This document shows, one piece after another, positions 7,401 through 63,996 of a DNA stretch of 64,000 nucleotides. The notes under the pieces are model-generated. The model was not told the DNA's origin and searched no databases. It was given only the letters and a program-made list of their open reading frames with translations. Source of the stretch: Candidatus Sungiibacteriota bacterium (GTDB lineage Bacteria; Patescibacteriota; Minisyncoccia; Sungbacterales; HO2-52-23); assembly GCA_016432465.1 (NCBI GenBank), contig CP066690.1, positions 250,702 through 314,701 on the forward strand, read 5' to 3'. The number at the start of each line of letters is the position of its first letter. Position 1 is the stretch's first letter. Position numbers and translations under genes: made by a program.

Positions 7401-7639
7401 TCCGAGCAGGACATTGGCACGAGCCTCCGCCTGCCCGTTAGGGCAGAACGCCGAAACAAAATTTTCTTTCTCTTTTAGAAGAAAAAAATCTGGCGCGCGC
7501 GAAAAATCAAAAATGTAAAGAAAATTTTGTTGGGGCGTAGCCCCGCCTTTGGCGGGACGCGGAGGCGTTGAGTAGCTAGAATTTTTTAGGAATTTTTGAC
7601 AAAGTAGGTTCGAGCGGACTCATAAAGATACATTCCCAT

Positions 7640-7678
7640 AAAAACCATCCCTCTGCCATTGGCAGAGGGATGGTTTTT
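7640..7678. terminator. bidirectional terminator-like hairpin
   Basis: AAAAACCATCCCTCTGCCA-TTGG-CAGAGGGATGGTTTTTAT: 15-bp stem with A-run and T-run on either side. Confidence 0.45.
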
Positions 7679-7718
7679 ATATTAGTCTTCAAGCAGTAGT
7701 CTTTGAAAAAGGTTATTC

Positions 7719-9616: not shown

Positions 9617-9672
9617 ACTGTGGAAACTTTGAGACAGTTTTTTGAACTTGTCTCAAGGTTTTCACTAAACCT

Positions 9673-36313: not shown

Positions 36314-36327
36314 AAGTATATTATACC

Positions 36328-39368: not shown

Positions 39369-40210
39369 GGTTCGCTCATCACGCCTCCAAAAGCGCCGAC
39401 CGTGACTGTTTGACAATCCGCCCCATAGGTCGCGATCTCGCGCGTGTCAATTGATAACTTTAGTTTTTTATTGTTTTTGCGGCAGTCCCTATCAATATGA
39501 AGAGTCGTATTGGTGTCGCTAATTGAAACTGCATGTATACGTAGCGTCTGATTTTGTCCGCCAACCACAATCGTACCTGTCCAATCAAAAATAGTGCGGG
39601 GCGGTGCGGGAGTCATAGTTATGGTAGAAACCGTATCTGGATTGGGCGGATCAAAAAACACAAGAGTCGCCGCCACTGAATTCTTAATGCTCCACCCGAG
39701 CCCAAAAGAACGATGCCGCGCATCCGCAATACGACTTCCCAGCGCCGCCGGAACACTGCCTGTCTGGTAGGTCTTGCCCGACCCCTCAACAGTAACTGAA
39801 AAAGTATTGGCAGAAACAGATGCTGTACGCAAGTCAAAACCGCCGCTCTGGTCGGTAGCTCCGCTTATTTTTTTAAAAACAATTTCCTGTCCGCCTCCGG
39901 CAAGGACAATGTTGGCAACTTCAATGCCAGAAGGCAGAGCGTGAACTTCGGTCAAGGTTGATCCGGAAAAAGATGCCCCGCGAAAAAGAGTAAATTGATT
40001 TTGTTCTAGTTTAACTCCCCATGGCGAATTATCCTCGCCGCCCAAGGCCCTTGCTTGAGCAAAACGAAGTATGGATAAAACATTTCCTCCGGCAGTGGTA
40101 AGGTCGCGCACTCGGCGCGAGTTTGTAAAAGACACCAAACTCACCGCGCCTAAAAGAGCGAGGATGGCAACGGATACAACAACTTCCAATAAGGTAATGC
40201 CGCGGCGCAT
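39365..40210 (-). CDS. type IV pseudopilin (MRRGITLLEVVVSVAILALL)
   Basis: canonical prepilin N-terminus G-ITLLE. Confidence 0.7.
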   Translation of the reverse strand: MRRGITLLEVVVSVAILALLGAVSLVSFTNSRRVRDLTTAGGNVLSILRFAQARALGGEDNSPWGVKLEQNQFTLFRGASFSGSTLTEVHALPSGIEVANIVLAGGGQEIVFKKISGATDQSGGFDLRTASVSANTFSVTVEGSGKTYQTGSVPAALGSRIADARHRSFGLGWSIKNSVAATLVFFDPPNPDTVSTITMTPAPPRTIFDWTGTIVVGGQNQTLRIHAVSISDTNTTLHIDRDCRKNNKKLKLSIDTREIATYGADCQTVTVGAFGGVMSEP

Positions 40211-40511
40211 GACTAAATATTACCAAGTGAAGAATAAATCGGCTGCAGCATGGAAATTGCGAAAAAGCCAACTGCTCGTAGCTCGCTCGCCGCAGGCGGC
40301 TCGCTCGTACTCTTCAGAAACCCACGGTTTCCGACGCTCCGCTTCAACAAGCTCAGCGTCGCTGCTTTCCTACTCGGGGAAAACCTTCCGCTTTTCCCCG
40401 ACCCCTTTTTGTGCAGTTGGCTTTTGATCGTCTCTCGCAACATGTTTTAATTAAATATTACCAAGTGAAGAATAAATCGGCTGCAGCATGGAAATTGCGA
40501 AAAAGCCAACT
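40206..40511. repeat. 62-bp direct duplication of the pilC 3' end flanking a 182-bp GC-rich insert
   Basis: AAATATTACCAAGTGAAGAATAAATCGGCTGCAGCATGGAAATTGCGAAAAAGCCAACTGC occurs at 40206-40267 and 40450-40511; the insert contains GCCGCAGGCGGCTCGC. Confidence 0.65.
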
Positions 40512-41686
40512 GCCGCCCCAATGACAATCATAAGAATCGGTTCAATAATTGTAGAGAGATTTTTGGTGGTATTGGTTACGTCCTCCTCAAAAAAAAGGGC
40601 AAGACGCAGCAGCATCTCGGAGACTTTTCCCGTTTCCTCCCCCACTTGTATCATCTGCAGTACAACTGGCTGAAAAATAAGCGGGTGAGCAGCCAGTATC
40701 TTGTTTAGTTGTTTCCCTTTTTGAATTTCCGAAGATGCCTCTCGCACCGCATCTTTATAAATAGTGTTCCCCAAGACCGAAGACGTAATCTCAAGCGACC
40801 TGACGACGGGAACTCCGGAGGTAAGTAAGTAGGCCAGCGTCCGGCAGAAACGCGCAATGTTGAATTTTTTAATAAGCGCTCCGAAAATGGGAAGCTTTAG
40901 ACTTATACGATCAAAGATTTCCTTACCTTTTTGGGTTTTCAATATACGTATAAAAATAAAGACCAGCGCCGCCAAGGCGATTAAAAACCAAATAGCATAG
41001 TTGAGAATCAGGTCGCTAACAGTAACAATGATTTTGGTGGTAAAAGGAAGTTCCACCCCCAACTCTTTGATGGTTGAAGTCAGCGTCGGCACCACATAAA
41101 TCATCATAAGAGTTCCCACGCCGAGCAGAACCATAATAATTATGGCCGGATAAAACATTGCGCCCTTCACCCGTTTTTTAAGGTTGTAATCTTTTTTCAT
41201 CTGGTTGGCAATGAGTTTCAGGACTAATGTAAGTTTTCCTGTTGTTTCGCCCACTTCAACCATGTTTATAAAAAGCGGGCCAAAAACTTTCTCATGCAGA
41301 CGAAGAGAGTCGGCAAAAGATTTGCCTTTTATAACTGAATTGTTTACCTCGGTTAGTATTTTTTTAAACTTGGGGTTGGCTGACTCTTGGGCCAAAGCGT
41401 CTAGAGCGCGTGTCAAAGAAAGTCCGGCCGCGACCATAACCGCAAGATTCCGGGCAAAAAACATTTTGTCCACCACCCCCACGGGCCTAAGACGAGAGAG
41501 AAGATCTGAAATATTAATACTAATATTCCACGAAGCCAGCCCAGTTTTTCCTTTTTCTTTGGCTTCCAGCAGAAAAAGCCCTTCGGTTTTGAGGGTCTGC
41601 GCAAGGACTTTTTGGTTTTCCGCCTCGCGTTCCCCTTTTACTATTTTCCCATCTTTTGCCGCGGCGGAATATACATAAATAGGCAT
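40451..41686 (-). CDS. pilC: type IV pilus assembly platform protein PilC (GspF family)
   Basis: 411 aa, two GspF-like repeats with 3 TM segments; N-terminal MPIYVYSAAAKDGKIVKGE typical. Confidence 0.85.
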   Translation of the reverse strand: MPIYVYSAAAKDGKIVKGEREAENQKVLAQTLKTEGLFLLEAKEKGKTGLASWNISINISDLLSRLRPVGVVDKMFFARNLAVMVAAGLSLTRALDALAQESANPKFKKILTEVNNSVIKGKSFADSLRLHEKVFGPLFINMVEVGETTGKLTLVLKLIANQMKKDYNLKKRVKGAMFYPAIIIMVLLGVGTLMMIYVVPTLTSTIKELGVELPFTTKIIVTVSDLILNYAIWFLIALAALVFIFIRILKTQKGKEIFDRISLKLPIFGALIKKFNIARFCRTLAYLLTSGVPVVRSLEITSSVLGNTIYKDAVREASSEIQKGKQLNKILAAHPLIFQPVVLQMIQVGEETGKVSEMLLRLALFFEEDVTNTTKNLSTIIEPILMIVIGAAVGFFAISMLQPIYSSLGNI

Positions 41687-49431: not shown

Positions 49432-51537
49432 ATGGCTGACATCCGTATCCACACCCCCATAGAGCAAGTCCCGGCCATCAGGAAAAGGATCATTCCGTCC
49501 CTGAAGCGTCTGGGTATAAAAACCATACGCGATCTTTTGTTTCATTTTCCTTCGCGCTACGAAGATTTTTCAAATTTAAAAACAGTCCAAACCCTTGAGG
49601 CCGGCGAAACGGTCACTATCCAAGGATACGTGAAAAGAGTAACCAATCGCCGGACTCCCCGAAAAAGAATGTTTTTAACCGAAGCCGTAATAAATGACGG
49701 AACGGGAAATATAAAAGCCCTGTGGTTCAACCAGCCCTTTCTCGTAAGAAACATAAAATCCGGAAACATAGTGAGTTTGTCGGGCAAAGTAGCGTGGGGG
49801 CAGGGCGGATTGTATCTTCAGAATCCTGCCTACGAGAGAATTCATAATTCAGAGTTTAAAACAACTAGTTCACAAGGAACACATACCGGAGGACTGGTGG
49901 CTATGTATCCGGAAACGGAAGGTATTTCTTCCCGCTGGTTAAGATATCTTATAAAGTCGTTCCTGAGCTTTAGGAAGGAACTTGCTGATCCCCTTCCTTC
50001 GGAGACTAGAAAAAGACACATGCTGTCCGATATTTATACGGCCTTGCAAAACATTCATTTCCCCCAAAACACACAAGAGGCGGAGGGGGCACGCCGCAGG
50101 TTTAGTTTTGAACAGATGCTTTTTATACAGCTTCGGGCCCTGAAAGAACGTATGCGCCTCAAAAAATTCAGCGCACCAGCTATTTCCTTGAATCTCCCGC
50201 TCCTGAAAAAATTTGTAAACTCTCTTCCCTATGAGCTAACCGACGCCCAACGCCGTTCCGTCTGGGAAATTGTGCAGGATATTTCCAAACCCCGCCCTAT
50301 GAACCGCCTGCTGGAAGGAGACGTAGGGTCCGGCAAAACAGTAGTTGCGGCTGCGGCTTCACTCCTTGCTATTCAGGAGGGGTACGAAGTCGCCTTTATG
50401 GCGCCGACAGAGATTCTTGCCAAGCAGCACTACTCAACGCTTGAAAAAATATTACACCCTTTTGGGGTTCGGGTTGGACTTCTTACCGGATCCGAAAAAA
50501 ACAAACGTAGTAACACCCTGCTCTGTGTAGGAACTCACGCCTTAATACAAAAAAACGCCCACTTTAAAAATCTGGGGTTGGTGATTGTTGATGAACAGCA
50601 TCGTTTTGGCGTGGAGCAACGCGCCCAGCTTGCCAAAAACAGTTCCGGTTCCCTTCCCCATTTCTTGTCTATGAGCGCCACACCCATCCCCCGGACATTG
50701 GCTCTCACCGTATATGGAGATCTTGACCTTTCTATACTGGACGAGCTGCCTAAAAACCGCAGGGAAATTATTACTAAAATTATCGGGCCCGGGAAACGGG
50801 AAGAAACATATCAATTCATCCGGGAAGGGGTGAAGCGGGGGGGACAGGCGTTTGTGATTTGCCCGAGAATAGAAGTCGGGGGTCAGGGATTGAAAATCGG
50901 AAAAATATCCCAACAGAAACTGCTTCTGGCCGACACCAAGACCGTGAAAGAGGAATATAAAAAACTATCCGAGAAAATTTTCCCGGATTTAAATGTGGGC
51001 ATACTCCACGGAAAGATGCCCGCCAAAGGCGGGTCCGCCTCCGGCGGAAAATCAAAAGAGCAAACTATGAAAGAATTCAAAGAAGGTAAGATAGATATTC
51101 TCGTCTCCACGTCGGTGGTGGAAGTAGGGGTGGACATACCCAACGCCACCATCATGGTGATTGAGGGAGCGGAAAAGTTTGGGCTGGCCCAACTTCATCA
51201 ATTTCGCGGTCGTGTGGGCAGAGGCGAACATCAATCTTACTGCTTCCTTTTTCCCACCGAGAATGGACTTGTAACCAAGCGGCTTAGGGCAGTGGTGGAG
51301 GCCAAGAACGGGTTTGAACTGGCAGAAAAAGATCTGGAAATCCGGGGGCCGGGAGACTTATTTGGCATACGCCAATGGGGAGTTCCGGACGTTGTATTGG
51401 CTGACATAAACAATGCCCGCCTGGTACGGGAAGTACGCGTTGCGGCCTTGGAGCTTATTAAAAAAGACCCTTCTTTGACCGGCTACCCCTTACTTTTGGA
51501 AGAACTCAAGCGCAGCCACACCCTTCATCTTGAATAA
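49432..51537 (+). CDS. recG: ATP-dependent DNA helicase RecG (carries an in-frame 12-aa repeat-derived insertion)
   Basis: wedge domain N-terminus; helicase motif I GDVGSGKT, motif II DEQHRFG; 701 aa; residues PAKGGSASGGKS are encoded by the double-hairpin repeat at 51017-51056. Confidence 0.9.
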   Translation: MADIRIHTPIEQVPAIRKRIIPSLKRLGIKTIRDLLFHFPSRYEDFSNLKTVQTLEAGETVTIQGYVKRVTNRRTPRKRMFLTEAVINDGTGNIKALWFNQPFLVRNIKSGNIVSLSGKVAWGQGGLYLQNPAYERIHNSEFKTTSSQGTHTGGLVAMYPETEGISSRWLRYLIKSFLSFRKELADPLPSETRKRHMLSDIYTALQNIHFPQNTQEAEGARRRFSFEQMLFIQLRALKERMRLKKFSAPAISLNLPLLKKFVNSLPYELTDAQRRSVWEIVQDISKPRPMNRLLEGDVGSGKTVVAAAASLLAIQEGYEVAFMAPTEILAKQHYSTLEKILHPFGVRVGLLTGSEKNKRSNTLLCVGTHALIQKNAHFKNLGLVIVDEQHRFGVEQRAQLAKNSSGSLPHFLSMSATPIPRTLALTVYGDLDLSILDELPKNRREIITKIIGPGKREETYQFIREGVKRGGQAFVICPRIEVGGQGLKIGKISQQKLLLADTKTVKEEYKKLSEKIFPDLNVGILHGKMPAKGGSASGGKSKEQTMKEFKEGKIDILVSTSVVEVGVDIPNATIMVIEGAEKFGLAQLHQFRGRVGRGEHQSYCFLFPTENGLVTKRLRAVVEAKNGFELAEKDLEIRGPGDLFGIRQWGVPDVVLADINNARLVREVRVAALELIKKDPSLTGYPLLLEELKRSHTLHLE
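51017..51056 (+). repeat. 40-nt double-hairpin repeat, copy 4, inserted in frame inside recG
   Basis: GATGCCCGCCAAAGGCGGGTCCGCCTCCGGCGGAAAATC versus the consensus CTTGCCCGCCAGAGGCGGGTCCGCCTTTGGCGGAAAAACT. Confidence 0.65.
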
Positions 51538-51684: not shown

Positions 51685-52920
51685 TCAAAGTGTCCTAAAC
51701 ACTTTAGCAATACGGATAAGTGCCAGTTTAAGCACGTCTTTTTCAATGATAAGGGGCGGTGAAAAACGAATTACGTTCTCGTGCGCATCCTTGCAGAGAA
51801 TCCGCTCCCCGCGCAAGGCGTCAACAAATCTGGCAGCTCCTCCTGCCTCGGGCCGCAATTCAATTCCCACCAAAAGACCCCTTCCACGCACCTCTTTTAT
51901 GTAAGGACTATAGATATTTTTAAGCTCGGATATAAAAAATTCTCCAAGTTCGGCAGCGCGCTGCGGCAGGTTTTCCCGCACAAGCAAATGCATCTCTTCA
52001 CGCGCCACGGCACAAGCCAGCGGATTTCCGCCAAAAGTGCTTCCGTGATCTCCGGGTTCAAAAACATCCATAAGTTCATTTATCCCTACTACTGCAGAAA
52101 TTCCCAAGCCGCCACCCAAGCCCTTACCCAGAAGCATTGCGTCCGGAAAAGACCCGTCATGCATATAAGCAAACATCTTACCTGTTCTGCCCAAACCAGT
52201 TTGAACCTCGTCCAGAATCATCAAAACGTGGTGAGCATCGCATATTTGACGAACATCGTTTAAGTAGCCGTCCGGAGGAACCAAAATTCCACCCTCGCCC
52301 TGAATAGGCTCAACAATAATGGCTGCGGTGTTGGGGTTGATCGCTTCTTCAAAAGCTCTGGCATCACCAAATGGTATTTTTTTAAACCCGGGAACCGGCG
52401 GACCAAAAAGATCATAGTACTGGGGAACGGTTGAAGCGCTTATAGCCCCGATGGTCCGGCCATGGAAATTGTTTTTACAAACAACGATCTCGGCCTGATC
52501 TTTGGGAACTACTTTTTCTGTATAAACATCTTTTCTGGTGTAAGCCCATTTGCGCGCGAGCTTGACGGCGCTATCAAAGACCTCTGCCCCGCTGGTCATA
52601 AAAAGAACCTTGTCCATGCCCGTAAACTCGGCCAGTTCCTTAGCACAAAGAATTTTCTGCTCTTCCCAAAGACAATTCGCATTGGCCGTAAGTTTACCCG
52701 CCTGACGAATGATGGCTTTTAGGATTTGGGGATGAACATGCCCGGGTGCAAGAGCGGAGTAACAAGAAAGCAGATCAACAAAAACCCGATCTTCAACATC
52801 ATAAAGCAGTACGCCTTGCCCCCGACTGACTACTAAGTCATCGGGCGGATCATAATTTCTGGGCAAATATTTATACGCTAACTCCACCAACTCTCTGATG
52901 GTTAAAGTGCGTTCACTCAT
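51685..52920 (-). CDS. class-III PLP-dependent aminotransferase (ornithine/acetylornithine aminotransferase-like)
   Basis: about 410 aa; GxGxxG-rich PLP fold; ILDEVQTGLGRTGKMFA carries the PLP-lysine context. Confidence 0.8.
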   Translation of the reverse strand: MSERTLTIRELVELAYKYLPRNYDPPDDLVVSRGQGVLLYDVEDRVFVDLLSCYSALAPGHVHPQILKAIIRQAGKLTANANCLWEEQKILCAKELAEFTGMDKVLFMTSGAEVFDSAVKLARKWAYTRKDVYTEKVVPKDQAEIVVCKNNFHGRTIGAISASTVPQYYDLFGPPVPGFKKIPFGDARAFEEAINPNTAAIIVEPIQGEGGILVPPDGYLNDVRQICDAHHVLMILDEVQTGLGRTGKMFAYMHDGSFPDAMLLGKGLGGGLGISAVVGINELMDVFEPGDHGSTFGGNPLACAVAREEMHLLVRENLPQRAAELGEFFISELKNIYSPYIKEVRGRGLLVGIELRPEAGGAARFVDALRGERILCKDAHENVIRFSPPLIIEKDVLKLALIRIAKVFRTL

Positions 52921-53015
52921 GGGCCCGTACCATTGTTGTCAACAAACCGTAAAAAGCGTATCACAGGCTACAAAAAATTACAAATTTAAAAGGCGGTTGG
53001 ACCGCCTTTTATGAA

Positions 53016-54566
53016 CTAAACAATGAGCCGTTCCTTAAGAATTTTTTTAATTAGTTCTTCGGCCCTACGAAGCGCTTGTGTATTACTCCTGCCCGTGGGA
53101 TCGTTATTAACTGCGGCAGGATCAAACGACATCAGTATTATGTGTGACCACGAATGTCCAAGGGGCGCAAGCAGACGATTGCGGCGCGCCTGCCTTAATA
53201 CTTCCACCCGCCAAGCAGCACGAGTGGCCGGAGGATGTTTACGTGCTTCTGCAACTTCCTCGTCGGAAAAAAGCGTTTCCACGCGGCCCGAACGTACAAG
53301 CTGCGGCCAAATTCCCCAGTCGTCCAAAGCGGTTAATTGATGGTGCAGCATTAGTAAATACTCACTAAGTGAAATTTGCTTGCCGTGATGTTCTATCCTT
53401 ACTTCATGGCAAGCATCCCACGAAGTGTTGTACTGGGCGAGCTTTTTTTCAAAAAGCAAGTATTTAAACCAGCATTCGGAAACACCGGCAAGGAGGGTTG
53501 GGTCCTGCCCCAAAAGCCGGAGAATTTCTTCAAACCGATACAGCACGTCCTGGTCTTCAGCAGTAAGAGAGAGTTTATCTGCGTTTTCCCAAATTAATTC
53601 CAGATACCGCCTTTGAACTTCAAGGGCCGTGAGGGTTATGGCCGAAGCAAAATGTATGGGGGTTTTAAGTGTCGGATCACACGCTAAAATATGAAAGTCG
53701 TTAAGAATTTCTCTGTACTGATATGTCTCAAACCTAGGAAAACAGCGCGGAAAGCAGTTGTTGGCTAGGAGCCGTAGAACCAAGCTGGTCATGCCAGCTT
53801 CTACGTAAGTAATGGTGTCAGAAAGCAAGGGATCGCCCTCAATAAGCTGCAGACGCTTCCATTGGGGTAAATCGTATGATTTGTAATCTGAAAAACGGCC
53901 TGTACAGATAAGTGGACGGCGAACCGTGGTTTCACTTGAAATAGTCCCCTGAATTGCCAGCGCCCGCGGAGAAAGAGTAAAAATAATTTCCTTATCGGAG
54001 TTTGGCCAAGAGTCCAAATTTTTAGGTCCGTACAAACGAGGAGCAATGCCGCCCTGTCCTGCCCAAACAACCTTGGTCACCAGAAACGGGCCAAGATAAC
54101 TAAGCAAAAATTCGTTGGGAATACGTTGCGGTATGCGGAAATTACGGTGCAAACCCCACCAATTACCACGCCAATCGGTGCTAGCCTTTAAAAGGTGGTA
54201 CGAACCCTGCGGCAGGGAAAATCGTTTGGGGTTTTGGCAAACTCTTAAAAATCGGCCTAGAATTTCAGCATCAGCGGCGCGGCTGTAAAGTGCGGCCTCA
54301 CGCGCCCCACGGCATTCCGGCGTAGCTGCCTCCAAATGGTGATAAAAACCACGCCTCAACTCTTGAGATACACGCAGCGGATGATCAATATAAATGCGGC
54401 CGCCCATGGAATTTTCATAATCAAGAACGCGATGGTCTATTAAACATTCAGTGGCTTGTTTTAAAACAGTGCGGTAAGTCAGTTCGGGTAAGGACGTGCC
54501 GTCTTCGGGGGTAAAACTTATAGCAAATTCCTGCTCAAAACCAATAATAACGTCTTCGGGCAACAT
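53016..54566 (-). CDS. Pup-ligase/deamidase (PafA/Dop) family protein, paralog 3
   Basis: N-terminal IIGFEQEFAI (compare PafA IMGIETEFG), ATPECRG (compare PafA ATAECDS), C-terminal SDEEVAEARKHPPATRAAWR (compare PafA [22 protein letters not shown]). Confidence 0.7.
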   Translation of the reverse strand: MLPEDVIIGFEQEFAISFTPEDGTSLPELTYRTVLKQATECLIDHRVLDYENSMGGRIYIDHPLRVSQELRRGFYHHLEAATPECRGAREAALYSRAADAEILGRFLRVCQNPKRFSLPQGSYHLLKASTDWRGNWWGLHRNFRIPQRIPNEFLLSYLGPFLVTKVVWAGQGGIAPRLYGPKNLDSWPNSDKEIIFTLSPRALAIQGTISSETTVRRPLICTGRFSDYKSYDLPQWKRLQLIEGDPLLSDTITYVEAGMTSLVLRLLANNCFPRCFPRFETYQYREILNDFHILACDPTLKTPIHFASAITLTALEVQRRYLELIWENADKLSLTAEDQDVLYRFEEILRLLGQDPTLLAGVSECWFKYLLFEKKLAQYNTSWDACHEVRIEHHGKQISLSEYLLMLHHQLTALDDWGIWPQLVRSGRVETLFSDEEVAEARKHPPATRAAWRVEVLRQARRNRLLAPLGHSWSHIILMSFDPAAVNNDPTGRSNTQALRRAEELIKKILKERLIV

Positions 54567-54618
54567 AAAACCACCCGGTTTTCAGGAACTAGTTATAGCA
54601 TAGGAGTGTTTAGAAATT

Positions 54619-56268
54619 TTACAAGCTTTGGTGCTGATTACTCCGGGGATTGCGTAATTTTGGCGTCACCCAAAAACTCATGTATTTCCCCAGCATTAAA
54701 CGAGTTTGCGCGTCAATCCCCGGAACAGAACCAAAAGTAATAATAGTCAGGGGAAGAAACGCCCACTGCAATATCATAGAAAGCCAAAGATACTTTTTTT
54801 TATGGGGCGGGCGGGGCGGAAGAAGAGAAGAAGAAATAATAGCAGAGGTTATAATACCAGCCATGGAAAGCGTCATTAAAAGTCTGGTAATACGCGGGAG
54901 ATTATAAGAAAGAACTGTCACGTTAAATTTGGCGCCGCCAAGAATCAGGGGCAGCCAACCCAGAAGAAAAATAATCAGGGCGTTGGTCGCCCAAGACCAA
55001 AAACCCTCAAGTTGTACAAAAGACCAGTAAAGCTTTGGACGAAAAGAGATTTTTTTATTTTTTAGAAAACCAAACACAAGATACGGAAAATTTTCCACTC
55101 CCCAGCCCCAACGCCGCTGTTGTTTATATACATTTTTAACGGTCTCCCCCAATGTACGTCCGACGTTGGCATCCATGGAAACCGGATAAAAAAGCGGGAC
55201 CGTCCTCCAGTCTCCGTCATAAAAAAGAAGCGACTGCCAAAAAATACGGGAGTCTTCGGATACAATGTTGGTTTGCCAATAGTTCATTTCAACCAAGGGC
55301 TTGAGCGGTATGGAATGCGAAGAAAACGTGGAAAGACGCTCGGCTCGCGCCTGCTGCATCATCTGCCAAAAAGTGCCGGAGGAGGCCACCACTCGCGAAA
55401 AAAAAGGCGCATCCCAAATGTTGTTATTATAAATAGGAATCGGCTGATAAGAGGAGCGAAGCGGATGCGCGGTTGTCAGATAATGATATGTTATTACCCC
55501 GAAATAATGCGGATAAATGCGTGTATCAATGTCAAAAGATGAAACTAAAACCTGCTCGTATTGAATTCCCAGACTATCAATAATTTTTTCTTTGGCCTCT
55601 CTTGCGGCCCATGTTTCGTTGGCCCCCTTCCCCGGAATTTCGCCCGCAATATCAGTCGGGTGCTCGCTTATTATAAATTTAAAAAAGGACCTGCTAAATT
55701 CCTGTCCAAGGCGACTGGCTATGAATCTTGCTTCCTCTCCGGCCCGCTCCTCTACGCCCAAGACTAAAATAATTTTATCTTTAGGGTAATGCGCCTGTTG
55801 GATCGCTTCCAGAGATCCGCGCACCACCCCATACGGCTCTTTATAAAAGGGTAAAATAACCAGATGGTAGATATCGCGCCAGTTTTCTACTTTAAGTTGC
55901 GGGTTGTAAGCCCTAATCTCCTCAAGTTTCGCCAACCAGTCCAATTTTAAATGCTGCTTCATCTTTTTGTAGCTGGCGCGGAGATGCCAAGATAGAAATA
56001 TGGTTTTGAGAAGCCAGTAAGCGTCAAAAATAACAATAAAAAGGCTCGCCGCAGCCGGTGCGCGCCAGGAAATAAAAATAATACCGGCCAGGGTGGCCCA
56101 GAGCATTATGCCGGGAACTGTTTCCAAAAATCTAAAAAGGTAGTATCCGCGTGCTAACGAAACATCAGCGGCCCGTCCCAATCTAAAGTAATTTTTTTTC
56201 TCCATGGTACGTTTAGCGTTACATATTGAGTTATAAAAATCAAAAATGTCGGGAGTAAAACCCGACAA
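54619..56268 (-). CDS. membrane-integrated family-2 glycosyltransferase (processive, cellulose-synthase-like)
   Basis: QxxRW motif (YKQQRRWGWG); D,D-type GT-A core between N- and C-terminal TM bundles; 549 aa. Confidence 0.65.
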   Translation of the reverse strand: MSGFTPDIFDFYNSICNAKRTMEKKNYFRLGRAADVSLARGYYLFRFLETVPGIMLWATLAGIIFISWRAPAAASLFIVIFDAYWLLKTIFLSWHLRASYKKMKQHLKLDWLAKLEEIRAYNPQLKVENWRDIYHLVILPFYKEPYGVVRGSLEAIQQAHYPKDKIILVLGVEERAGEEARFIASRLGQEFSRSFFKFIISEHPTDIAGEIPGKGANETWAAREAKEKIIDSLGIQYEQVLVSSFDIDTRIYPHYFGVITYHYLTTAHPLRSSYQPIPIYNNNIWDAPFFSRVVASSGTFWQMMQQARAERLSTFSSHSIPLKPLVEMNYWQTNIVSEDSRIFWQSLLFYDGDWRTVPLFYPVSMDANVGRTLGETVKNVYKQQRRWGWGVENFPYLVFGFLKNKKISFRPKLYWSFVQLEGFWSWATNALIIFLLGWLPLILGGAKFNVTVLSYNLPRITRLLMTLSMAGIITSAIISSSLLPPRPPHKKKYLWLSMILQWAFLPLTIITFGSVPGIDAQTRLMLGKYMSFWVTPKLRNPRSNQHQSL

Positions 56269-56293
56269 GATTGCGATTAAACGGCGGATAAAC

Positions 56294-57985
56294 TCACCAA
56301 GCAGATCCTATCTCTCTCAAAAGGTCCTGCGGCCTTCCTTTTTCCAGCTCCCGTACCCGAAAAAGATAGGGGTTGGGATTTTGAATCGTCCTGAAAATCT
56401 TATAAGAGCCCGGCAATGAGACTTCGGCCTGACGAATAGTTATACCTTCCCAGCCGCACCCCTGCAGTGCTAAATTCTGTTTAACCCCCTCTGTCTCTAT
56501 CCAGCGGAAAATTTTTTCACGCCAGGCGGCTCTGGTATAGGGCGGAGGGTTATCAGCAGCGCGCTCTATTTCCTCCTTTTTAAACAACCGCTTAACTTTT
56601 TCCTGCTCCAGCAAAATACCGTAAGAACTTTTGTCAGTCTCTACATTGGCATACTCCACTAAAAGGTGTAAAAGATAATCTATAAGTTTAGCGCGGCCCC
56701 TACGGGTTTCCAAAGGAATATCGCGGGGTATATTTTTTTCTCCGGCGTTACGATAATAAGACGGCAGAGGGGCAATAAGTTGCTCAACTTCAAGGCCGAG
56801 TCGGGCCAAAAGCGGAGTTATACAATAGTAAAGTATGGCTGCCCAATCAAGGATCTGGGCAAGATAGGCAAGATCCCAACGGTCTAGAGCGTCAATCACT
56901 TTTTCCCAAAGCTCAAGCGCCATGCGTCGCTCCGGAGTAAGTTCCCCCCGTCCCTCATCTATATAGCGGTGCACCTCACCTATATAGAAGCGCTGAAAAT
57001 CAAGGGCGTTCCATTTTTCCCCACCAGCCAAAAAAACGACTTTTTTTGACTTTATGTCAGCGTTGAAAAAGGTCGCCCTTTCTGCAACACTATTCAATCT
57101 TCCATCTCTAATTAAAGGGAGAATCGGCAGAAATTCGTTCTCTTCAAGCAGCATAAGCATTAGATCAAAGGTGCCATATTTTAAAAAGAGCTGCCATTCA
57201 GACATATTGGAGTTTCCGGAAATGTCATGGAGTCTCCGCCAGCAGTCTTTATCCGCATGGGGCTCGTCTCTGGTATTAATAAAAGCCCTGTCTATCCCGG
57301 TAGTATCCGGGCCGTCATATTTAGTCATTAGGTTAGCGCGCTGCGAAAGGTAAAACCGTACCCATCCTCCGGCAAGTGGTTCAACCCACCCATTGCCAAT
57401 AATACAGGGGCGGGTCATAAGAAACGGTACGAGGTGTCTTCGTAAAACTTCGTAGCCAATACGCCGCGGGATCAAATAATTAGCGTGGTGACCCCATGTT
57501 TCCAGAAACCCAGACGCATTGAAGTACTCACAGTTGCGGTTACCCTTGTAAAAATGCACTTTCGGATATTGCGGTTTAAGCGTGCGGAAAAGACGCACGC
57601 CGTCAGCCACCATCTCCATGCCGGCAACTTCGTGCAGAACCGCTTCTCTGGTGCCTCTACACTCCGGGCTTGCATACTCAAGGTGGTTATTACGTTCACT
57701 ATAGCATTGTCCCTGATTGGGAAGCACAAAACGACCGCAGGTAAAACTGCGAACCGATTCAATATCCAGGGCTCCTCTTATGATACAGGCATGGATTATA
57801 CGCGATAGAACTTCACGAAGAAAAGCATTGGTGTAATATCCCGATGGCCCGATGACGCGTGTCCCGAGTTCCAGCTCCAGGCCGATGATACGGTGCTTTA
57901 TACGTTTGGGTCCGCCTCTATTGTTGACCTGACCCATAGGACCGCACTCCGCCTTGCTTATCAAAGTACATAACCATAGTAACAA
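56294..57985 (-). CDS. Pup-ligase/deamidase (PafA/Dop) family protein, paralog 2
   Basis: [12 protein letters not shown] N-terminus, [15 protein letters not shown], and [26 protein letters not shown] (compare PafA [26 protein letters not shown]); C-terminal [19 protein letters not shown]. Confidence 0.75.
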   Translation of the reverse strand: [563 protein letters not shown]

Positions 57986-58084
57986 AATATAAATAAAGCG
58001 CCAGAGCTCTGCTCTGGCTTTTGGGGCTTACTAAGACCTCTTGTACAATAACCCTTCGTAACGAAAGTTATTATGCAAAAGTCT

Positions 58085-58321
58085 TTACTCGCCACCTCTT
58101 TGTACGTAACTTCTTACAAACTCCTCCGCGTTTCCTTCCAACGTTGCATCAATATCTTCCAGAAGTTTATCCATATCTTCTTTTAGCTTCTTGCTTTTTT
58201 TCTCAGCGGCCTGACTGACTTTTTCTTCTTCGCTTTCTGGCTTGTCCTTTACTTTTTCTGCGTTCTTTTGCTCTTCCGCCACTTCTGCCTCCCTTTGGTG
58301 GCCCTTATTGAAGTTTAACAC
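58085..58321 (-). CDS. pup: Pup-like prokaryotic ubiquitin-like protein ending in GGE
   Basis: 78 aa, disordered acidic/lysine-rich body; C-terminus MDKLLEDIDATLEGNAEEFVRSYVQRGGE parallels the Pup consensus ...DDLLDEIDGVLE.NAEEFVRAYVQKGGQ/E. Confidence 0.75.
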   Translation of the reverse strand: MLNFNKGHQREAEVAEEQKNAEKVKDKPESEEEKVSQAAEKKSKKLKEDMDKLLEDIDATLEGNAEEFVRSYVQRGGE

Positions 58322-58357
58322 AGCGCCGTAAATAATGCAATCCGATATCCAATAGAT

Positions 58358-60220
58358 TTAGGACCCAAACCAATCATCATCTTCGTCAAATGGCTGCTGC
58401 GGGACAAAATCGCCGGAGTATACTGGTTGTTCCGGTGGACGAGGAGGATGACGAACCAGCTTCTCGTAGAGAGCCTTGCTCCATTTTTTATGGGTGTCCT
58501 CCCTCTCCTCATCGGTCTCAACCCTAAGACCGTGGTCCGGATACGGCTTGACGTCTTCACCCTTACCAAGAGTTTTTCTTGTACTCCACATGTCCTCGCA
58601 ACGCACCACCTCAACAAAGGGGTGGACTCTTACGACATCAACAAATTCCACAAAAGGCAGGGAAAGAGATCTAGTCCAAAATTCTTCGTTCCAGAGCTCG
58701 GTTGGGTCGCCCAGAGACAGGGAATAAATTTTCTTCTCATGCCTAAACGTAATCCTATGCCAGAAGTCCGAAGAAATGACTAACTCCGGATACCCTTTAA
58801 TAATTTCCAAAACAATCTTGGAGCGGGTGGGCGGAGGTCCGTCCATGGCCTGCTTAATCTCTTCGTCCGTAGTGATACGATAACTGTTTGGGTAAATTTT
58901 GGTGTAAAAAATTCCGCTTTCGTGATTGTTATCGTGGTATTCACAATCCAGCCTCATGGCCAAATCGTCCTGCCACGTTTTTCCTTTTTTCACCAGAGCA
59001 GCTTCAATAAAATTCAGCTTGGTTACCCAGTCCAGCTTACCGTGAAGGCTAACCCGCCAATCTGACCTACCAAAGGCGTCCAAAACAGAGGCAAATTCTG
59101 CCACCACCCGCTTTAATATCTGATTTTCGGGGTGATATGCCTCTACGTAGTTGCCAAAAAGGTCGCAGTAGTCACGCAAACAGTCCAGCGCCAGACGCGA
59201 ACCCTTATGGTTAATAAGCCAGACACGTTTTTTAAGGCTGGTATCCCAGGAGATTTCGTGGAAGGCACCAACCGGATGGCCGATTTCAAAACGATGGTCC
59301 AAAACTCCGTCCTCCATCATCATGTAAAGAATGGCTGTCAGTCCTGCTTTCATGAATTCCGGAAGCTCCAACATATTGGAGTCGCCCGGGATTACGTGTC
59401 CACGTCGGAAGTTTTTTTCTTCGCCGTAAACAACGTTGCGGGTGTTATGAATAGGCCGGTTGTAGGAGGTTTCTATGTTGGCAACTGCGCTGAAAAAATC
59501 GGCCCGCTGGGAAATCTGAAAATCCACATCTACAATATCACTTCCCCGATGGGACCCGGCCCCTAAACAGTCGCCTCCCACCTTTCCGGCGCCTATTACA
59601 ATAGTCCGCATGACAAACCAAGGAACGTCCTTGCGTATTAAATCATCCTCGCTAACACGGCGCGAAATTGTATAATTTTCATGGCAGGCCCAAGAGCTTC
59701 TTGGAACCCTCTCCCCCCTTTTTCTACTTCTGGCACGATGCCAATCATCGTCTCCGGCGGTATTGTTTCTAAACACCCTGAAATTCCGCCCTGCCGCCTC
59801 ATGTAATTTGCGCAATCTGTCGATCCAGCGGTAACAGGCCCTGTTCCAAATAACCAGCATGCGCGGATCGCTACAGATAGCTGTAGAAATTTCAGTATGG
59901 GGACCGATGTCTACATAAAGACGCGCGCCATTGGGAAGCAGTATGTTCAAAAATTTCTGCCACATTTGTCTTTGAAAGAAGCTGTGGGGGTTGAGGGTCG
60001 AAACCTCTACTTTGCGCAATCTCTCAGTCGGATCCCAAGAAAATATTCCTTGGGCTCCCAAAACCCATTCCGGCTCAATGCTTTCTACAAAAGCAAAACC
60101 ACCCGAGTAGGCAGCGGGGGAACCAGCATGCATTACTCCAAGTTCTGTTTCTATCCCGCACATCTTGGGAGTGGCTCTAGATTCGGGCATCATCTTATCC
60201 TTTTCAAGGCGCTTTCCCAA
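58358..60220 (-). CDS. Pup-ligase/deamidase (PafA/Dop) family protein, paralog 1 (Dop-like by position), with acidic proline-rich C-terminal extension
   Basis: KMCGIETELGV N-terminus; TDEEIKQAMDGPPPTRSKIV near the C-terminus; lies between the mpa-like gene and pup as dop does in actinobacteria; 620 aa. Confidence 0.7.
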   Translation of the reverse strand: MGKRLEKDKMMPESRATPKMCGIETELGVMHAGSPAAYSGGFAFVESIEPEWVLGAQGIFSWDPTERLRKVEVSTLNPHSFFQRQMWQKFLNILLPNGARLYVDIGPHTEISTAICSDPRMLVIWNRACYRWIDRLRKLHEAAGRNFRVFRNNTAGDDDWHRARSRKRGERVPRSSWACHENYTISRRVSEDDLIRKDVPWFVMRTIVIGAGKVGGDCLGAGSHRGSDIVDVDFQISQRADFFSAVANIETSYNRPIHNTRNVVYGEEKNFRRGHVIPGDSNMLELPEFMKAGLTAILYMMMEDGVLDHRFEIGHPVGAFHEISWDTSLKKRVWLINHKGSRLALDCLRDYCDLFGNYVEAYHPENQILKRVVAEFASVLDAFGRSDWRVSLHGKLDWVTKLNFIEAALVKKGKTWQDDLAMRLDCEYHDNNHESGIFYTKIYPNSYRITTDEEIKQAMDGPPPTRSKIVLEIIKGYPELVISSDFWHRITFRHEKKIYSLSLGDPTELWNEEFWTRSLSLPFVEFVDVVRVHPFVEVVRCEDMWSTRKTLGKGEDVKPYPDHGLRVETDEEREDTHKKWSKALYEKLVRHPPRPPEQPVYSGDFVPQQPFDEDDDWFGS

Positions 60221-60272: not shown

Positions 60273-62201
60273 TTACAGATACTGACCGCCGCTAATGGTT
60301 TCGGTCGTACGGCTCGCTTCTTTCTTTTTCTTCCGCCCAAGGTTGGGGGTGACCCCAACAATACGCTCCCGTCTACCCTGCATAGCAAGCCACATTTGGG
60401 CATCGTCCAGAGTATTGGGTAACTCTTCATTCTCATCCATTTCATCAGATACGGCCACGCAGAAATCTAAGGCCGTGAGACCAAACTCCCCGCCGCTGAC
60501 AGCACGCTTAACAACATGTTTCTTGGCGCGCTCCACTATACTTTTAATCATCGCGCCAGACACCAAGTCTTTAAGGTAAATAGGAAGCTTTGCCCCATCA
60601 TGCAAAACTACATCCATAAGTTTATTGTCTGCTTTAATTAGCGCTCCTGACGCATCCCGATATTGATAAGGCTCTTCGTTGGTGGCCCAGAGCCGCTTCA
60701 CGGCCTCGGTAATAATATGTTCAATTATCAACTCTGGCTTGCCGCCCCACTCCTGATAGCTGGGAGAAAACTTGGGGTGTTTGGGATTTTGATATTTAGG
60801 ATGAAGAGGAAGATTTTTTGTGACGTAAATGGAAAAAATTTCCTTGGCGCCATCCTGATCCGGGCGATCAATCCTTATCTTGATGTCAACGCGTCCCGGA
60901 CGAAGCACGGCTGGGTCAATCAAGTCATGACGGTTGGAGGCAAGAATAATAATAACATTAGCAAGCGTTTCTATACCGTCCAGCATCACTAAAAATTGCG
61001 GCACAATTGTAGTTTCAATGTCTGAAGAAATCCCCCTACCTCGGGTGCGCAGTACCGACTCTGCCTCATCCAAAAAAATAATAACCGGGTGGTCCTCGCT
61101 TGCCTTTTCTTTGGCCCGCTGGAAGATCTCACGAATTTTGCGCTCAGTCTCGCCAACGTACTTATTTAGAATTTCCGGGCCCTTGATGTTTATAAAATAT
61201 CCCTTGATGCTCTTTCCCAGTTTATTAGCAAGGCGGCTAGCCAGCCCATTGGCCACGGCCTTGGCAATTAGGGTTTTCCCGCAACCCGGAGGGCCATAAA
61301 GCATAATTCCCTTGGAAAGCTCCATTTCAAGTCTCCGGAAAAGGTCCGGGTAAAGATACGGAAGCTCAATAGCGTCGCGGATCTTACTAATCTGTGTTCC
61401 CAGTCCTCCGATCTTTTCATAAGTAACGCCCGGGACTTCTTCCAACAGCAGTTCGCTGATTTCATGCTTGGGCAGAGCCGCGATGCCGCCCAGAAACATA
61501 CCACTGCCCGCCTGCGGCAGAAGCCATTTATCCCCCACGCGCATACTCTGCATTATTTCTGCGGGCCAAGTCTTGGGAATCAGGGCAATGTGTTTTTCAT
61601 CAAGCCTGGTTACGAATCTAACCCGGTGCTCGTCCAAAATCTCATCAATAGTAACTTCTTCTCCGGCCATAGTCAGTACGTCCTGAAGCTCGTCAGAGGC
61701 AACGGCTACAATATTGGAATGCTCATTCATCATTACAAATCTGCCGCGCACCAGTTTTTCTTTTTCCTGATTAAAAACTTTGTCGGTTATATGCACCCGC
61801 AAAAGACGCGCACCCACATAAACCCAGAAGGTTTCTTTTTCTTCCCTGTGTAGATGTCCCTCATCGTCTCTTTGTTCGGACACCTCTTTACCGCCATAAA
61901 TTAGTACTGCGGCAATGCCATGAGGCGGAGAGGTCAGGGCATTTAATTCTCTGCTCATCTCTATAGCTTCCTGACGAAGCTCCGTCAGGGCCCGCACTAG
62001 ACCGCTATTCATCTCCCGCACTCGTTCCGCAAATGCCTCCAAATCATAAATTACGCTGTCCACGCGAGCCCTAAGCTCTTCAACCCTTGGACGACTCAGG
62101 ACAGTATTATCTTCAAGCACCCTACGAACTCCAAAAAGATTAGAGCGAGCTTTTTCAAAAAGGGATTCAAAATTGCGAGACGGATCGCGATCCTTGTTCA
62201 T
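60273..62201 (-). CDS. proteasome-associated ATPase-like AAA+ protein (Mpa/ARC family) with C-terminal GQYL
   Basis: N-terminal coiled coil, OB-like middle region, Walker A GPPGCGKT and Walker B DE; the protein ends ...ISGGQYL, the Mpa proteasome-docking motif. Confidence 0.8.
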   Translation of the reverse strand: MNKDRDPSRNFESLFEKARSNLFGVRRVLEDNTVLSRPRVEELRARVDSVIYDLEAFAERVREMNSGLVRALTELRQEAIEMSRELNALTSPPHGIAAVLIYGGKEVSEQRDDEGHLHREEKETFWVYVGARLLRVHITDKVFNQEKEKLVRGRFVMMNEHSNIVAVASDELQDVLTMAGEEVTIDEILDEHRVRFVTRLDEKHIALIPKTWPAEIMQSMRVGDKWLLPQAGSGMFLGGIAALPKHEISELLLEEVPGVTYEKIGGLGTQISKIRDAIELPYLYPDLFRRLEMELSKGIMLYGPPGCGKTLIAKAVANGLASRLANKLGKSIKGYFINIKGPEILNKYVGETERKIREIFQRAKEKASEDHPVIIFLDEAESVLRTRGRGISSDIETTIVPQFLVMLDGIETLANVIIILASNRHDLIDPAVLRPGRVDIKIRIDRPDQDGAKEIFSIYVTKNLPLHPKYQNPKHPKFSPSYQEWGGKPELIIEHIITEAVKRLWATNEEPYQYRDASGALIKADNKLMDVVLHDGAKLPIYLKDLVSGAMIKSIVERAKKHVVKRAVSGGEFGLTALDFCVAVSDEMDENEELPNTLDDAQMWLAMQGRRERIVGVTPNLGRKKKKEASRTTETISGGQYL

Positions 62202-62895: not shown

Positions 62896-62935
62896 ATGGG
62901 TGCGCTTGGATTTGAACCAAGGACCTACGGATTAT
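62896..62935 (-). pseudogene. tRNA 3' fragment (T-arm CTTGG-TTCAAAT-CCAAG plus acceptor 3' strand) without a detectable 5' half
   Basis: minus-strand ...GGTCCTTGGTTCAAATCCAAGCGCACCCA; no complementary acceptor 5' strand within 150 nt. Confidence 0.4.
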
Positions 62936-63065
62936 ATCTTCGCTTCGCTCGATATAAACGGTTCGCTCGGACAAAATGAAAGATTGCTTTCATTTTCTCC
63001 TCGCTGCCGTTTATAAGACGCAAGCTCTAACTTCATCCCCCACCTATTTTGGACAAGATAAAAAA

Positions 63066-63137
63066 TGCGTGTGCCAGGGATCGAACCTGGGACATCCACT
63101 TTATAAGAGTGGCGCTCTACCACTGAGCTACACACGC
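63066..63137 (-). tRNA. tRNA with anticodon TAT (Ile-type, AUA-decoding; unusual)
   Basis: acceptor GCGTGTG/CACACGC, D-arm TAGCTCAGTGGTAGAGC, anticodon stem CCACT/AGTGG with loop CTTATAA, T-arm CCAGG-TTCGATC-CCTGG; flanked by complementary CCCACCTATTTTGGAC / GTCCAAAATAGGTGGGG. Confidence 0.65.
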
Positions 63138-63243
63138 AAAGTCCAAAATAGGTGGGGGGACAAGCCGAGCTACGCACCCGAAATATTATCATTGATTACT
63201 TTTATACTCATCATAATTTTTTCGAACCAGCCGATATCTGCGG

Positions 63244-63996
63244 TTACCCTTTTATCAATTGCTCAAACTCTTCTCTTTCAATCGTTTCTTTCTCCATCAA
63301 AACCTTGGCAATTTCATCCAGCTTGTCCCGCCTGCTAGTCAAAATTTTCCCGGCAGAATCAAAAGCGCCATCCATCAACTTTTTAACTTCCCTATCAATC
63401 AATTGCGCTGTTTCTTCGGAATAATTTTTTTCGGTGGTAAGCTCGCGTCCCAAAAACACAAGTTCCTCCCGCTCGCCTAAAGCAATTGGTCCGATTTTCT
63501 CGGACATCCCAAAACGCGTAACCAAGTTTCTGGCCAAAGCCGTTGCTTTTTTTAAGTCATCCGCGGCGCCGGTGGTAATTTCGTTAAAAACAACTTTTTC
63601 CGAAGCATAACCCCCTAGAGACACGGCCAGCTCGTCCAGAAAGTGCGAGCGCGAAAAAATATGACGATCTTCTATGGGAAGTTTTAAGGTATAACCAGCA
63701 GCCCGACCCCGCGCCACAATGGAAACTTTGTGCACCGGATCGGCGTGCGGAAGCGAGGCTGCAACCAAAGCGTGTCCGGCCTCATGATAGGCCGAGATTT
63801 TTTTCTCCTCGGGTGTCAAGATGTGACTTTTTCGCTCCGGCCCAAGCATTACTTTTTCAATGGAATTTATTAAATCCGCCTGTATGACTTTTTTTCGGTT
63901 GTTGCGCGCAGCAAGTATTGCTCCCTCATTAACAAGATTGGCCAAGTCAGCGCCGGAAAACCCCGGAGTGCGCTCGGCAATTCTTCGCAGCGCCAC
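63244..63996 (-). CDS. ftsH: ATP-dependent zinc metalloprotease FtsH, C-terminal M41 peptidase domain (gene continues beyond the window)
   Basis: HEAGHALVA zinc-binding HEXXH plus GxSEK-type downstream context; the ORF is open at the window edge. Confidence 0.85.
   Translation of the reverse strand: MALRRIAERTPGFSGADLANLVNEGAILAARNNRKKVIQADLINSIEKVMLGPERKSHILTPEEKKISAYHEAGHALVAASLPHADPVHKVSIVARGRAAGYTLKLPIEDRHIFSRSHFLDELAVSLGGYASEKVVFNEITTGAADDLKKATALARNLVTRFGMSEKIGPIALGEREELVFLGRELTTEKNYSEETAQLIDREVKKLMDGAFDSAGKILTSRRDKLDEIAKVLMEKETIEREEFEQLIKG

Follow-up and report, generated by a model that had tools for sequence, protein, structure and literature searches.

The pupylation cluster and its gene products

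We analysed a 64,000-nucleotide stretch of contig CP066690.1 (assembly GCA_016432465.1, forward-strand positions 250,702 to 314,701; hereafter the window) from a Candidatus Sungiibacteriota bacterium, a groundwater organism with a very small genome. In this window a pupylation cluster on the minus strand holds three genes of the PafA/Dop family (PF03136, Pup_ligase). In the direction of transcription the cluster reads mpa/arc, paralog 1 (Dop-type), pup, paralog 2, a gene for a family-2 glycosyltransferase (GT2)-like membrane protein, and paralog 3. The three paralogs matched PF03136 in Pfam with 266.2, 242.6 and 195.8 bits against a gathering threshold of 25 bits, and sequence searches of the PDB returned Dop and PafA as their only relatives of solved structure. 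Three members of one family within 7.2 kb beside an Mpa/ARC ATPase cannot be a product of chance. An earlier reading of positions 53016-60220, made from the DNA alone (the original prediction), had proposed three oversized PafA/Dop-family paralogs, and both the number and the unusual size were borne out. Its implication that the three genes are contiguous was wrong, since it had overlooked the Pup gene between paralogs 1 and 2 and the GT2-like gene between paralogs 2 and 3.

Counted from the first possible start, the maximal open reading frames (ORFs) of the three paralogs on the minus strand are 58358-60220 (620 aa), 56294-57985 (563 aa) and 53016-54566 (516 aa). The lengths of 620, 563 and 516 residues in the original prediction are correct for these maximal frames; as products, 610, 547 and 515 residues are likely from independent gene calls and NCBI records, the larger figures being inflated because the ORFs were counted from upstream TTG codons. 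Paralog 1 accordingly occupies 58358-60190 and paralog 2 56294-57937, and the recorded protein of paralog 3 (53016-54566) begins one residue after the start of the 516-aa ORF. The products still exceed the actinobacterial references, which are 494-545 aa long for Dop and 452-464 aa for PafA, and the extra length is made up of discrete insertions and a 77-aa C-terminal tail on paralog 1. Compared with the references, paralog 1 has a 16-aa basic insert before HENY together with this tail (residues 534-610, 58361-58591, ending in DEDDDWFGS), which is absent from Dop and PafA; paralog 2 has 10 additional N-terminal residues, two 7-aa inserts and a 33-aa insert in the C-terminal domain; and paralog 3 has, by alignment, a 12-aa loop directly after the catalytic Asp (PLRVSQELRRGF, 54345-54380), inserts of 8 and 9 aa, and a 16-aa insert in the C-terminal domain.

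Each paralog is a single full-length ORF that spans the family model. The same cluster was assembled, with identical proteins, in four separate Logan runs and is therefore no assembly artefact; at NCBI, a Candidatus Sungiibacteriota metagenome-assembled genome (MAG) contains exact copies of paralogs 1 and 2 under the label 'proteasome accessory factor PafA2 family protein'. AlphaFold2 (AF2) models of paralog 1 (predicted local distance difference test, pLDDT, 86.5) and paralog 3 (pLDDT 89.5, predicted template-modelling score, pTM, 0.93) each showed a complete two-domain fold, with TMt values of 0.75-0.91 against crystal structures of Dop and PafA. Each of the three is an intact PafA/Dop-family protein with the two domains of the carboxylate-amine-ligase fold, the folds having been modelled for paralogs 1 and 3. 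The GhExE nucleotide-binding motif is GIETE in paralog 1, GLELE in paralog 2 and GFEQE in paralog 3, and does not vary within the orthologous groups to which they belong (A, B and C, respectively). The core catalytic and metal-binding residues are largely kept in the three proteins, and the substitutions that distinguish a clade are conserved inside it, which indicates selection and not decay. With full-length ORFs, four assemblies, an orthologous clade for each gene and confident models for two of the three, none of the paralogs is the frameshifted pseudogene that the original prediction had named as its possible refutation.

The Pup gene (58085-58282, minus strand) was recognised from its translation of 65 residues, which scored 65.7 bits on PF05639 against a cut-off of 27. 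Its start codon is a GTG six bases downstream of GGGAGG, and the protein ends in ...NAEEFVRSYVQRGGE (YVQRGGE; the same end is also given as ...LLEDIDATLEGNAEEFVRSYVQRGGE). The upstream ATPase of 642 aa (60273-62201, minus strand) matched the Pfam families AAA and Prot_ATP_ID_OB_N and scored 511.4 bits on TIGR03689 (pup_AAA), above the equivalog cut-off of 504.75. Its C-terminus reads ...GGQYL, and a G[QH]YL end was present in eight of nine CPR (candidate phyla radiation) orthologs (window motif region 60273-60290; the others from related loci L009-L014 and L037), a motif that in mycobacteria docks Mpa onto the 20S core. None of the approximately 46 window ORFs scanned matched PF00227 (20S alpha/beta), and the gene tables of the related Pup loci held no PF00227 entry.

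The GT2-like gene (54619-56205, minus strand) encodes a multi-pass membrane protein of 528 aa, read as a processive glycosyltransferase from its motifs and from the Pfam matches of an ortholog. The window protein itself had no Pfam match and a PDB sequence search with it gave no meaningful match; one ortholog matched Glyco_trans_2_3 (9.8e-5) and Chitin_synth_2 (0.012). An alignment of three orthologs revealed the conserved stretches VILPFYKEP, SxDxDT, SEDSRIFW and QQRRWGWG, which we take to be signature motifs of processive family-2 glycosyltransferases. The protein was 57-62% identical to the products of genes beside the Pup clusters of L009 (14049-15614) and L013 (13240-14811), and is better conserved among these loci than the Pup enzymes are. 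Our scan of the window placed terminator-like hairpins 3' of Mpa, Pup (58000-58018, an 8-bp stem with 6 GC pairs followed by a T-run), paralog 2, paralog 3 (52987-53011, a strong 11-bp stem followed by a T-run, which closes the cluster) and the ornithine aminotransferase gene beyond it, the two hairpins with coordinates lying on the minus strand. Between the GT2-like gene and paralog 3, a gap of 52 nt, there is no such hairpin, and because of this the two genes are probably co-transcribed.

Active-site signatures of the three enzymes

Discriminating and catalytic residues were scored according to Hecht et al. 2020 (PMC7947786) and Cui et al. 2021 (PMC8599861), with M. smegmatis Dop numbering for D95; the alignment of the Dop-loop and catalytic residues proposed in the original prediction was thereby carried out, and showed a Dop-loop in paralog 1 only and clade-specific changes of the active site in paralogs 2 and 3. 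On NCBIfam models all three paralogs (111-219 bits) fell under half of the equivalog cut-offs, which are 492.3 bits for Dop (TIGR03688) and 551.3 bits for PafA (TIGR03686).

By its sequence features paralog 1 is Dop-type, with a predicted Dop-loop and a grouping with Dop, and its Dop-loop Trp and best structural fit upheld the earlier claim of a Dop-like gene in the Dop position. It scored 219 bits on TIGR03688 against 187.9 on TIGR03686, and its closest relatives outside its own clade are the actinobacterial Dop proteins. In Dop the loop comprises 40-65 residues ahead of strand beta-2. In paralog 1 the spacer that holds it is 76 aa long, compared with 83 in a Dop reference and 44 in a PafA reference, and contains a Trp-Asp pair that aligns with W47-D48 of Dop; 14 of the 15 group A members have this Trp. 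Like Dop (4B0R, 7OXV), paralog 1 keeps S102, F209, the catalytic D95 and the Mg ligands Y93, E100, H156 and H242, and the AF2 model fitted Dop with TMt 0.87-0.91 and a root-mean-square deviation (rmsd) of 3-4 Å, as opposed to TMt 0.75-0.77 and rmsd 7.6-13 Å for PafA. It differs from Dop, besides the basic insert and the tail, in the surroundings of the catalytic Asp, V-D-I-G-P-H, with a PafA-like extra residue and a Gly, where Dop reads V-D-H-A-H (V94-D-H96-A97) without an insertion. Position 104 is Ala (P104 in 13 of 15 group A members) and H232 is replaced by Tyr. Around the catalytic Asp, the aligned residues make paralog 1 a putative mosaic of Dop-type and PafA-type positions. Pup orthologs in L010, L009, L012 and L037 end in GGE or GGQ, and both L009 and L012, whose Pup ends in Gln, carry a group A gene; this variety among lineages fits a role of group A as deamidase/depupylase.

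The tail of paralog 1 had been described as acidic and proline-rich. The quoted sequence was correct and the tail is long, but it is only mildly acidic overall (the last 80 residues hold 19 Asp or Glu, 9 Pro and 15 Lys, Arg or His) and strongly so only at its very end. It is a real coding extension and no read-through product, and the model predicts it to be a disordered, lineage-specific addition: block means of pLDDT ranged from 34 to 67 over residues ~531-610, with values below 50 at 541-548, 550-557 and 580-610 and one weak helix at 560-580. Across group A (about 33 clusters) the proteins are 516-666 aa long and their C-terminal tails are not alignable; these tails appear to be modular add-ons. 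In several of them the last residues form an acidic and aromatic patch, e.g. DPDDYEF... or DEDDDWFGS, and the tail of paralog 1 possibly carries a short docking motif. The suggestion that it mimics the C-terminus of Pup failed, as BLASTP against the window Pup gave no alignment at E <= 100, the tail ends in WFGS and not in GG[EQ], and it is unconserved in orthologs. As a separate observation, some group A tails (P0138, P0141, P0146) contain a Cys/His-rich motif resembling a metal-binding site, e.g. HCSQCRLHHDASGR.

Paralogs 2 and 3 both lack the Dop-loop Trp, with spacers of 56 and 46 aa, respectively. Paralog 2 scored 199.5 bits on TIGR03686 (PafA) and 189.5 on TIGR03688 (Dop), and belongs to group B, of 13 members with 34-54% identity. 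It retains GxExE, Y93, E100, H156, N158, R206, R228, R240 and H242, and reads Y-S-E-R-N-N-H-L-E-Y-A-S-P; here the catalytic acid is followed by an extra residue, as in PafA, and position 102 is Ala. It keeps none of the signature residues of the PafA alpha-loop (H..W-E-G-x-S-S-A..R-S). Both paralogs resemble PafA (4B0T, 4BJR) in having no Dop-loop, extra residue(s) after the catalytic acid, and A-T/S following E-Y, and A102 and T103 predominate in groups B and C; neither paralog has the PafA-specific Asp418. Further differences from PafA are, in paralog 2, a spacer longer by 12 aa, the 33-aa insert described above and the substitutions D95E, E157A and D247N, and, in paralog 3, H242Q, E157R, H232S, the loss of the NTRDEPHAD motif, the 12-aa loop and the 16-aa insert.

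Paralog 3 reads Y-I-D, the 12-aa insertion, and then H-L-E-A-A-T-P, with A102/T103. Its spacer of 46 aa has the length found in PafA, and it shares with PafA the A-T motif and, from the alpha-loop signature, the S-S; in group C this S-S is present as S215 in six and as S216 in seven of 11 members, and the H, W, E and R of the loop and Asp418 are not kept. Group C is invariant at GxExE, Y93, D95, E100, N158, R206 and R240. Paralog 3 keeps H156; E157 is Arg, H232 is Ser and R228 is shifted. The insertion is found in the window protein (W_P3), is shorter or different in P0002-5 and P0251-2, and is absent in P0253-6. In the model this region is of lower confidence, the blocks within residues 61-80 having mean pLDDT values of 64-74.

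Group C is also rare. Only nine representatives were recovered among 1.84 billion cluster representatives, after which the scores dropped from 259 to 119 bits, and when JGI metagenome contigs were searched with a group C profile, all matches were generic members of the family (23-30% identity) and none was a true group C protein. We looked for a second Pup-like modifier beside the stand-alone group C genes and rejected the candidates, small ORFs downstream in L005 and L007 without a GG[EQ] end. These ORFs start with a hydrophobic N-terminus followed by Cys and are read as putatively lipoprotein-like.

Related loci and the surroundings of the cluster

Clades were defined by all-against-all BLAST and by neighbour-joining on Kimura distances with 100 bootstraps. 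Five CPR clades resulted, each with 100% bootstrap support: A with paralog 1, B with paralog 2, C with paralog 3, D (L009_505, L014_513, P0257 and L037_517, the last assigned by BLAST only, after the tree), and E (L010_569, L013_510). The bipartition that sets clade A and actinobacterial Dop apart from PafA and clades B, C, D and E was recovered in 71% of bootstraps. Members of B, C, D and E have an insertion of roughly 15-45 residues at one point of the C-terminal domain, just before a DLxYxD segment, which neither group A nor the actinobacterial Dop and PafA sequences contain; the model of paralog 3 shows it as a confident beta-hairpin (strands 390-393 and 396-399). We read this insertion as a probable shared derived character, and because B, C, D and E have it in common it points to an origin of paralogs 2 and 3 by a lineage-specific duplication.

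Clades C, D and E were never found together in one locus, and B occurred together with C in the window, with D in L009 and with E in L010. Close to a convergent recG, the cluster ends with a C gene in the window, an E gene in L010 and a D gene in L037, with the ornithine aminotransferase gene intervening between paralog 3 and recG in the window. On the most economical reading of these sequences, C, D and E would be fast-diverging orthologs of the PafA-position gene of this lineage, paralog 3 its most derived version, and B an added CPR-specific paralog. The notion of the usual pair plus one extra gene holds in this form, with paralog 1 as the Dop-type member and paralog 3 in the PafA position, and the added clade is that of paralog 2.

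Three PF03136 genes per cluster occur in at least three lineages, that is, on at least two diverged contigs besides the window, and the orthologs share approximately 40% identity. The order is Mpa, B, A, Pup, E in L010, and Mpa, A, D, Pup(Q) in L009, where B, FtsH and GT2 are on the other strand. Clusters with two enzymes contain A and D (L014: FtsH, Mpa, A, D; L037: Mpa, Pup, A, D, recG), A and E (L013: FtsH, HtrA, Mpa, OAT, A, E, GT2, DUF2298, where OAT is the aminotransferase) or A and B (L006: FtsH, short Mpa, A, degenerate Pup-like ORF, B, PrkA module), and therefore either ligase-side type can accompany A alone. L012 reads Mpa, A, Pup(Q), IMPDH. A scan of GTDB genomes with a group B profile returned a single locus, L006, and the phyletic survey therefore rests on metagenome contigs. 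This locus, the only one of a GTDB representative genome with group B, is unusual in other respects: its Mpa (6588-7748) is shortened to 386 aa and lacks GQYL, the ORF in the Pup position (9671-9871) is highly basic, ends in ...RRRHIQEKGE and has no canonical Pup helix motif, and a PrkA/DUF444/SpoVR module follows the cluster.

Several other genes surround the cluster in the window. A partial FtsH gene (63244-63996, minus strand) is the first in the direction of transcription, and FtsH is a recurrent neighbour of Pup clusters (window, L006, L009, L011, L013 and L014), its gene holding an intein in L011 and L014 (Intein_splicing and LAGLIDADG matches). It is followed by a tRNA-Ile(UAU) gene (63065-63138, minus strand). 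The tRNA is flanked by an inverted repeat, CCCCCCACCTATTTTGGAC / GTCCAAAATAGGTGGGGG (window about 62900-63180, minus strand), beyond which lie sequences resembling the 5' and 3' halves of another tRNA; a split tRNA around tRNA-Ile was called neither by ARAGORN with introns allowed nor by Rfam. On the other side, the ornithine aminotransferase (OAT) gene (51685-52920, minus strand) was identified by its NCBIfam score, and recG (49432-51537) is convergent to the cluster. A class-III aminotransferase also adjoins the Pup cluster in the distantly related L013 (8262-9575), where it was recognised by a Pfam Aminotran_3 match, and the two loci differ in how it is oriented towards the cluster. Upstream of the Pup region, a type IV pilus-like block (34132-41686, minus strand) encodes PilM, a T2SS-F/PilC-like protein and proteins with the prepilin N-terminal methylation motif. 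The window has 46% GC and 16 tRNA genes in 64 kb, which we take to be compatible with a small genome.

Predicted roles, alternatives and significance

Taking these data together, we consider it probable that this pupylation cluster of a CPR bacterium encodes one depupylase and two specialised ligase-side enzymes. The original prediction had offered three functions for the extra paralog, those of a specialised ligase, a depupylase or an enzyme for a non-protein substrate; each may still apply, and for the two extra enzymes the aligned signatures favour a placement of both on the ligase side. Paralog 1 would remove Pup and, in relatives with a GGQ end, deamidate it. Either paralog 2 or paralog 3, or the two of them, would use the acyl-phosphate chemistry of the fold to join the gamma-carboxylate of the C-terminal Glu of Pup to lysines, and ligation would be split between two enzymes that differ in the chemistry of their active sites or in the range of their substrates. 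Paralog 2, in which the full metal and phosphate site is kept, is the likelier general ligase, and paralog 3 may be a specialised ligase or a regulator, because of its remodelled site and the new loop beside the catalytic Asp. Mpa would then handle the pupylated proteins.

A number of observations weigh against this assignment. The catalytic acid of paralog 2 is Glu in the window protein, whereas 11 of 13 clade B members have Asp; E157 is Ala or Gly in all 13 and D247 is Asn in 12, and we found no role described for either position in the PafA/Dop literature searched. Paralog 3, lacking both the NTRDEPHAD motif and the metal/phosphate ligand His242 (Gln or Glu in 10 of 11 group C members), may be inactive. 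It scored 144 bits on the Dop model TIGR03688 against 111.3 on the PafA model TIGR03686, and Foldseek slightly favoured Dop (TMt 0.84) over PafA (0.80), a comparison of folds that is uninformative for telling the two apart. The neighbour-joining tree has long branches, its key bipartition has a support of only 71%, and many of the loci are short contigs, on which the absence of a paralog is not its absence from the genome.

The same changes in group C could mean that one ligase-side paralog, most likely paralog 3, is a dead pseudoenzyme that serves as a Pup- or substrate-binding regulator, an adaptor or a partner subunit, with one working ligase left. We judge this unlikely, though it deserves to be kept in view. 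Apart from the changes at H242 and the missing NTRDEPHAD, H156 is Gln in three of 11 group C members and R228 is unconserved; the Foldseek matches of the paralog 3 model include the Dop-CoaX-Pup complex 9cku, and a 2024 PNAS paper (PMC11626117) reports a regulator of depupylation. Nevertheless, the invariance of GxExE, Y93, D95, E100, N158, R206 and R240 at only 36-46% identity would be unexpected for a dead site, Gln or Glu can still coordinate Mg, and the model of paralog 3 shows an intact fold. The altered active site of group C might instead reflect the retargeting of one paralog to a non-protein or envelope amine acceptor, or to the GT2 synthase or its polymer, which would link Pup ligation to envelope biogenesis or to FtsH quality control. 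Consistent with this idea, the 52-nt gap between the GT2-like gene and paralog 3 lacks a terminator, unlike those after the other genes, the GT2 ortholog has remained beside the rearranged Pup clusters of L009 and L013, FtsH recurs as a neighbour, and in two other phyla Iyer et al. 2008 (PMC2588565) found Pup ligases linked to membrane proteins and not to proteasome genes. However, the group C homologs in L005, L007 and L008 do not adjoin a GT2 gene (these being short contigs), five of the nine other cluster loci have no GT2 gene, and the linkage may be mere retained synteny among related small genomes, so we regard retargeting as a long shot.

It is slightly harder still to see paralog 2 or 3 as a second depupylase or amidase, which would make the cluster one of two hydrolases and one ligase. 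PDB sequence searches do place Dop chains above PafA for both proteins, NCBIfam favours Dop for paralog 3, and relatively few residues govern the switch between ligase and hydrolase (Hecht et al. 2020, PMC7947786). Against this, both lack the Dop-loop and its Trp and have the PafA-type extra residue(s) after the catalytic acid as well as A102/T103, paralog 3 has the SS alpha-loop, and the two fall on the non-Dop side in the 71% of bootstraps noted above. Finally, it is scarcely credible that the extra copy is a pseudogene in decay, an artefact of assembly or an ORF lengthened by read-through. The upstream TTG starts did inflate the maximal lengths, but the proteins were identical in four separate sequencing runs and in the NCBI MAG, each full-length ORF has an orthologous clade with conserved catalytic residues, and paralogs 1 and 3 gave high-confidence models.

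The reading of one depupylase with two ligase-side enzymes can also be extended to a more far-reaching scenario, namely a proteasome-independent pupylation by three enzymes in which a lineage-specific duplication gave two distinct ligases and paralog 3, with its remodelled metal site and its co-transcription with the GT2 synthase, would be retargeted to envelope or other non-canonical acceptors or would couple Pup tagging to the turnover of membrane proteins by FtsH. In this full form we find it doubtful.

Compared with the actinobacterial Pup-proteasome system (mpa-dop-pup-prcB-prcA...pafA in Mycobacterium, Acidothermus and Corynebacterium), the window cluster is alike in an Mpa/ARC that passes the equivalog cut-off, a Pup with the canonical ...EEFV.SYVQRGG[EQ] end, a Dop-type gene between mpa and pup, and enzymes with the PF03136 fold, the GhExE motif, and the catalytic acid and Mg ligands, except that H242 is Gln in paralog 3. 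It differs in having no prcBA in the cluster or the 64-kb window, two genes on the ligase side where Actinobacteria have a single PafA, enzymes only ~30% identical to the actinobacterial ones, a GT2 membrane synthase within the cluster, and a CPR host. Two predicted ligase-side enzymes, no linked 20S, a putative GT2 synthase, deep divergence and the CPR host are thus five departures from that system. Two further kinds of system (Hecht et al. 2020; Iyer et al. 2008) were compared by description: the PafA/Dop-like proteins that occur in single copy in Planctomycetes, and the Pup ligases of Plesiocystis and Rhodopirellula with their link to membranes. They are alike in being deep-branching, with ~30% identity to PafA and Dop, and their pup gene, with no proteasome genes adjacent, is linked to one for a membrane protein. 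One or two paralogs are present there, and the ligase itself contains transmembrane insertions, whereas the window has three soluble paralogs and a separate GT2 protein.

The phylum Candidatus Sungiibacteriota falls within the Parcubacteria/Patescibacteria (CPR) group. Hecht et al. 2020 (PMC7947786) list Actinobacteria, Nitrospirae and sporadic other phyla as carriers of Pup and do not name the CPR, and recent papers, in their abstracts, name PafA as the sole Pup ligase. Our literature search found no paper linking pupylation with the CPR, Patescibacteria or Sungbacteria, and no description of a three-enzyme Pup layout with one Dop-type and two ligase-type enzymes. The UBact paper of Lehmann et al. 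from 2017 is said to mention some candidate phyla, and an earlier mention of the CPR is possible. The lineage nonetheless appears unexplored for pupylation. The layout is a solid and recurrent genomic pattern that would come as a moderate surprise to specialists, the functions assigned here being predictions from sequence.

If the assignment is true, two distinct Pup ligases would contradict the rule of PafA as the sole ligase. The cluster would also offer a comparative test case for three questions: how one fold encodes substrate range and the direction of ligase versus hydrolase, for which paralog 1, with residues of both types, is of particular use; what role pupylation plays without a linked proteasome; and why the ultra-small genomes of CPR bacteria devote approximately 7 kb to pupylation.

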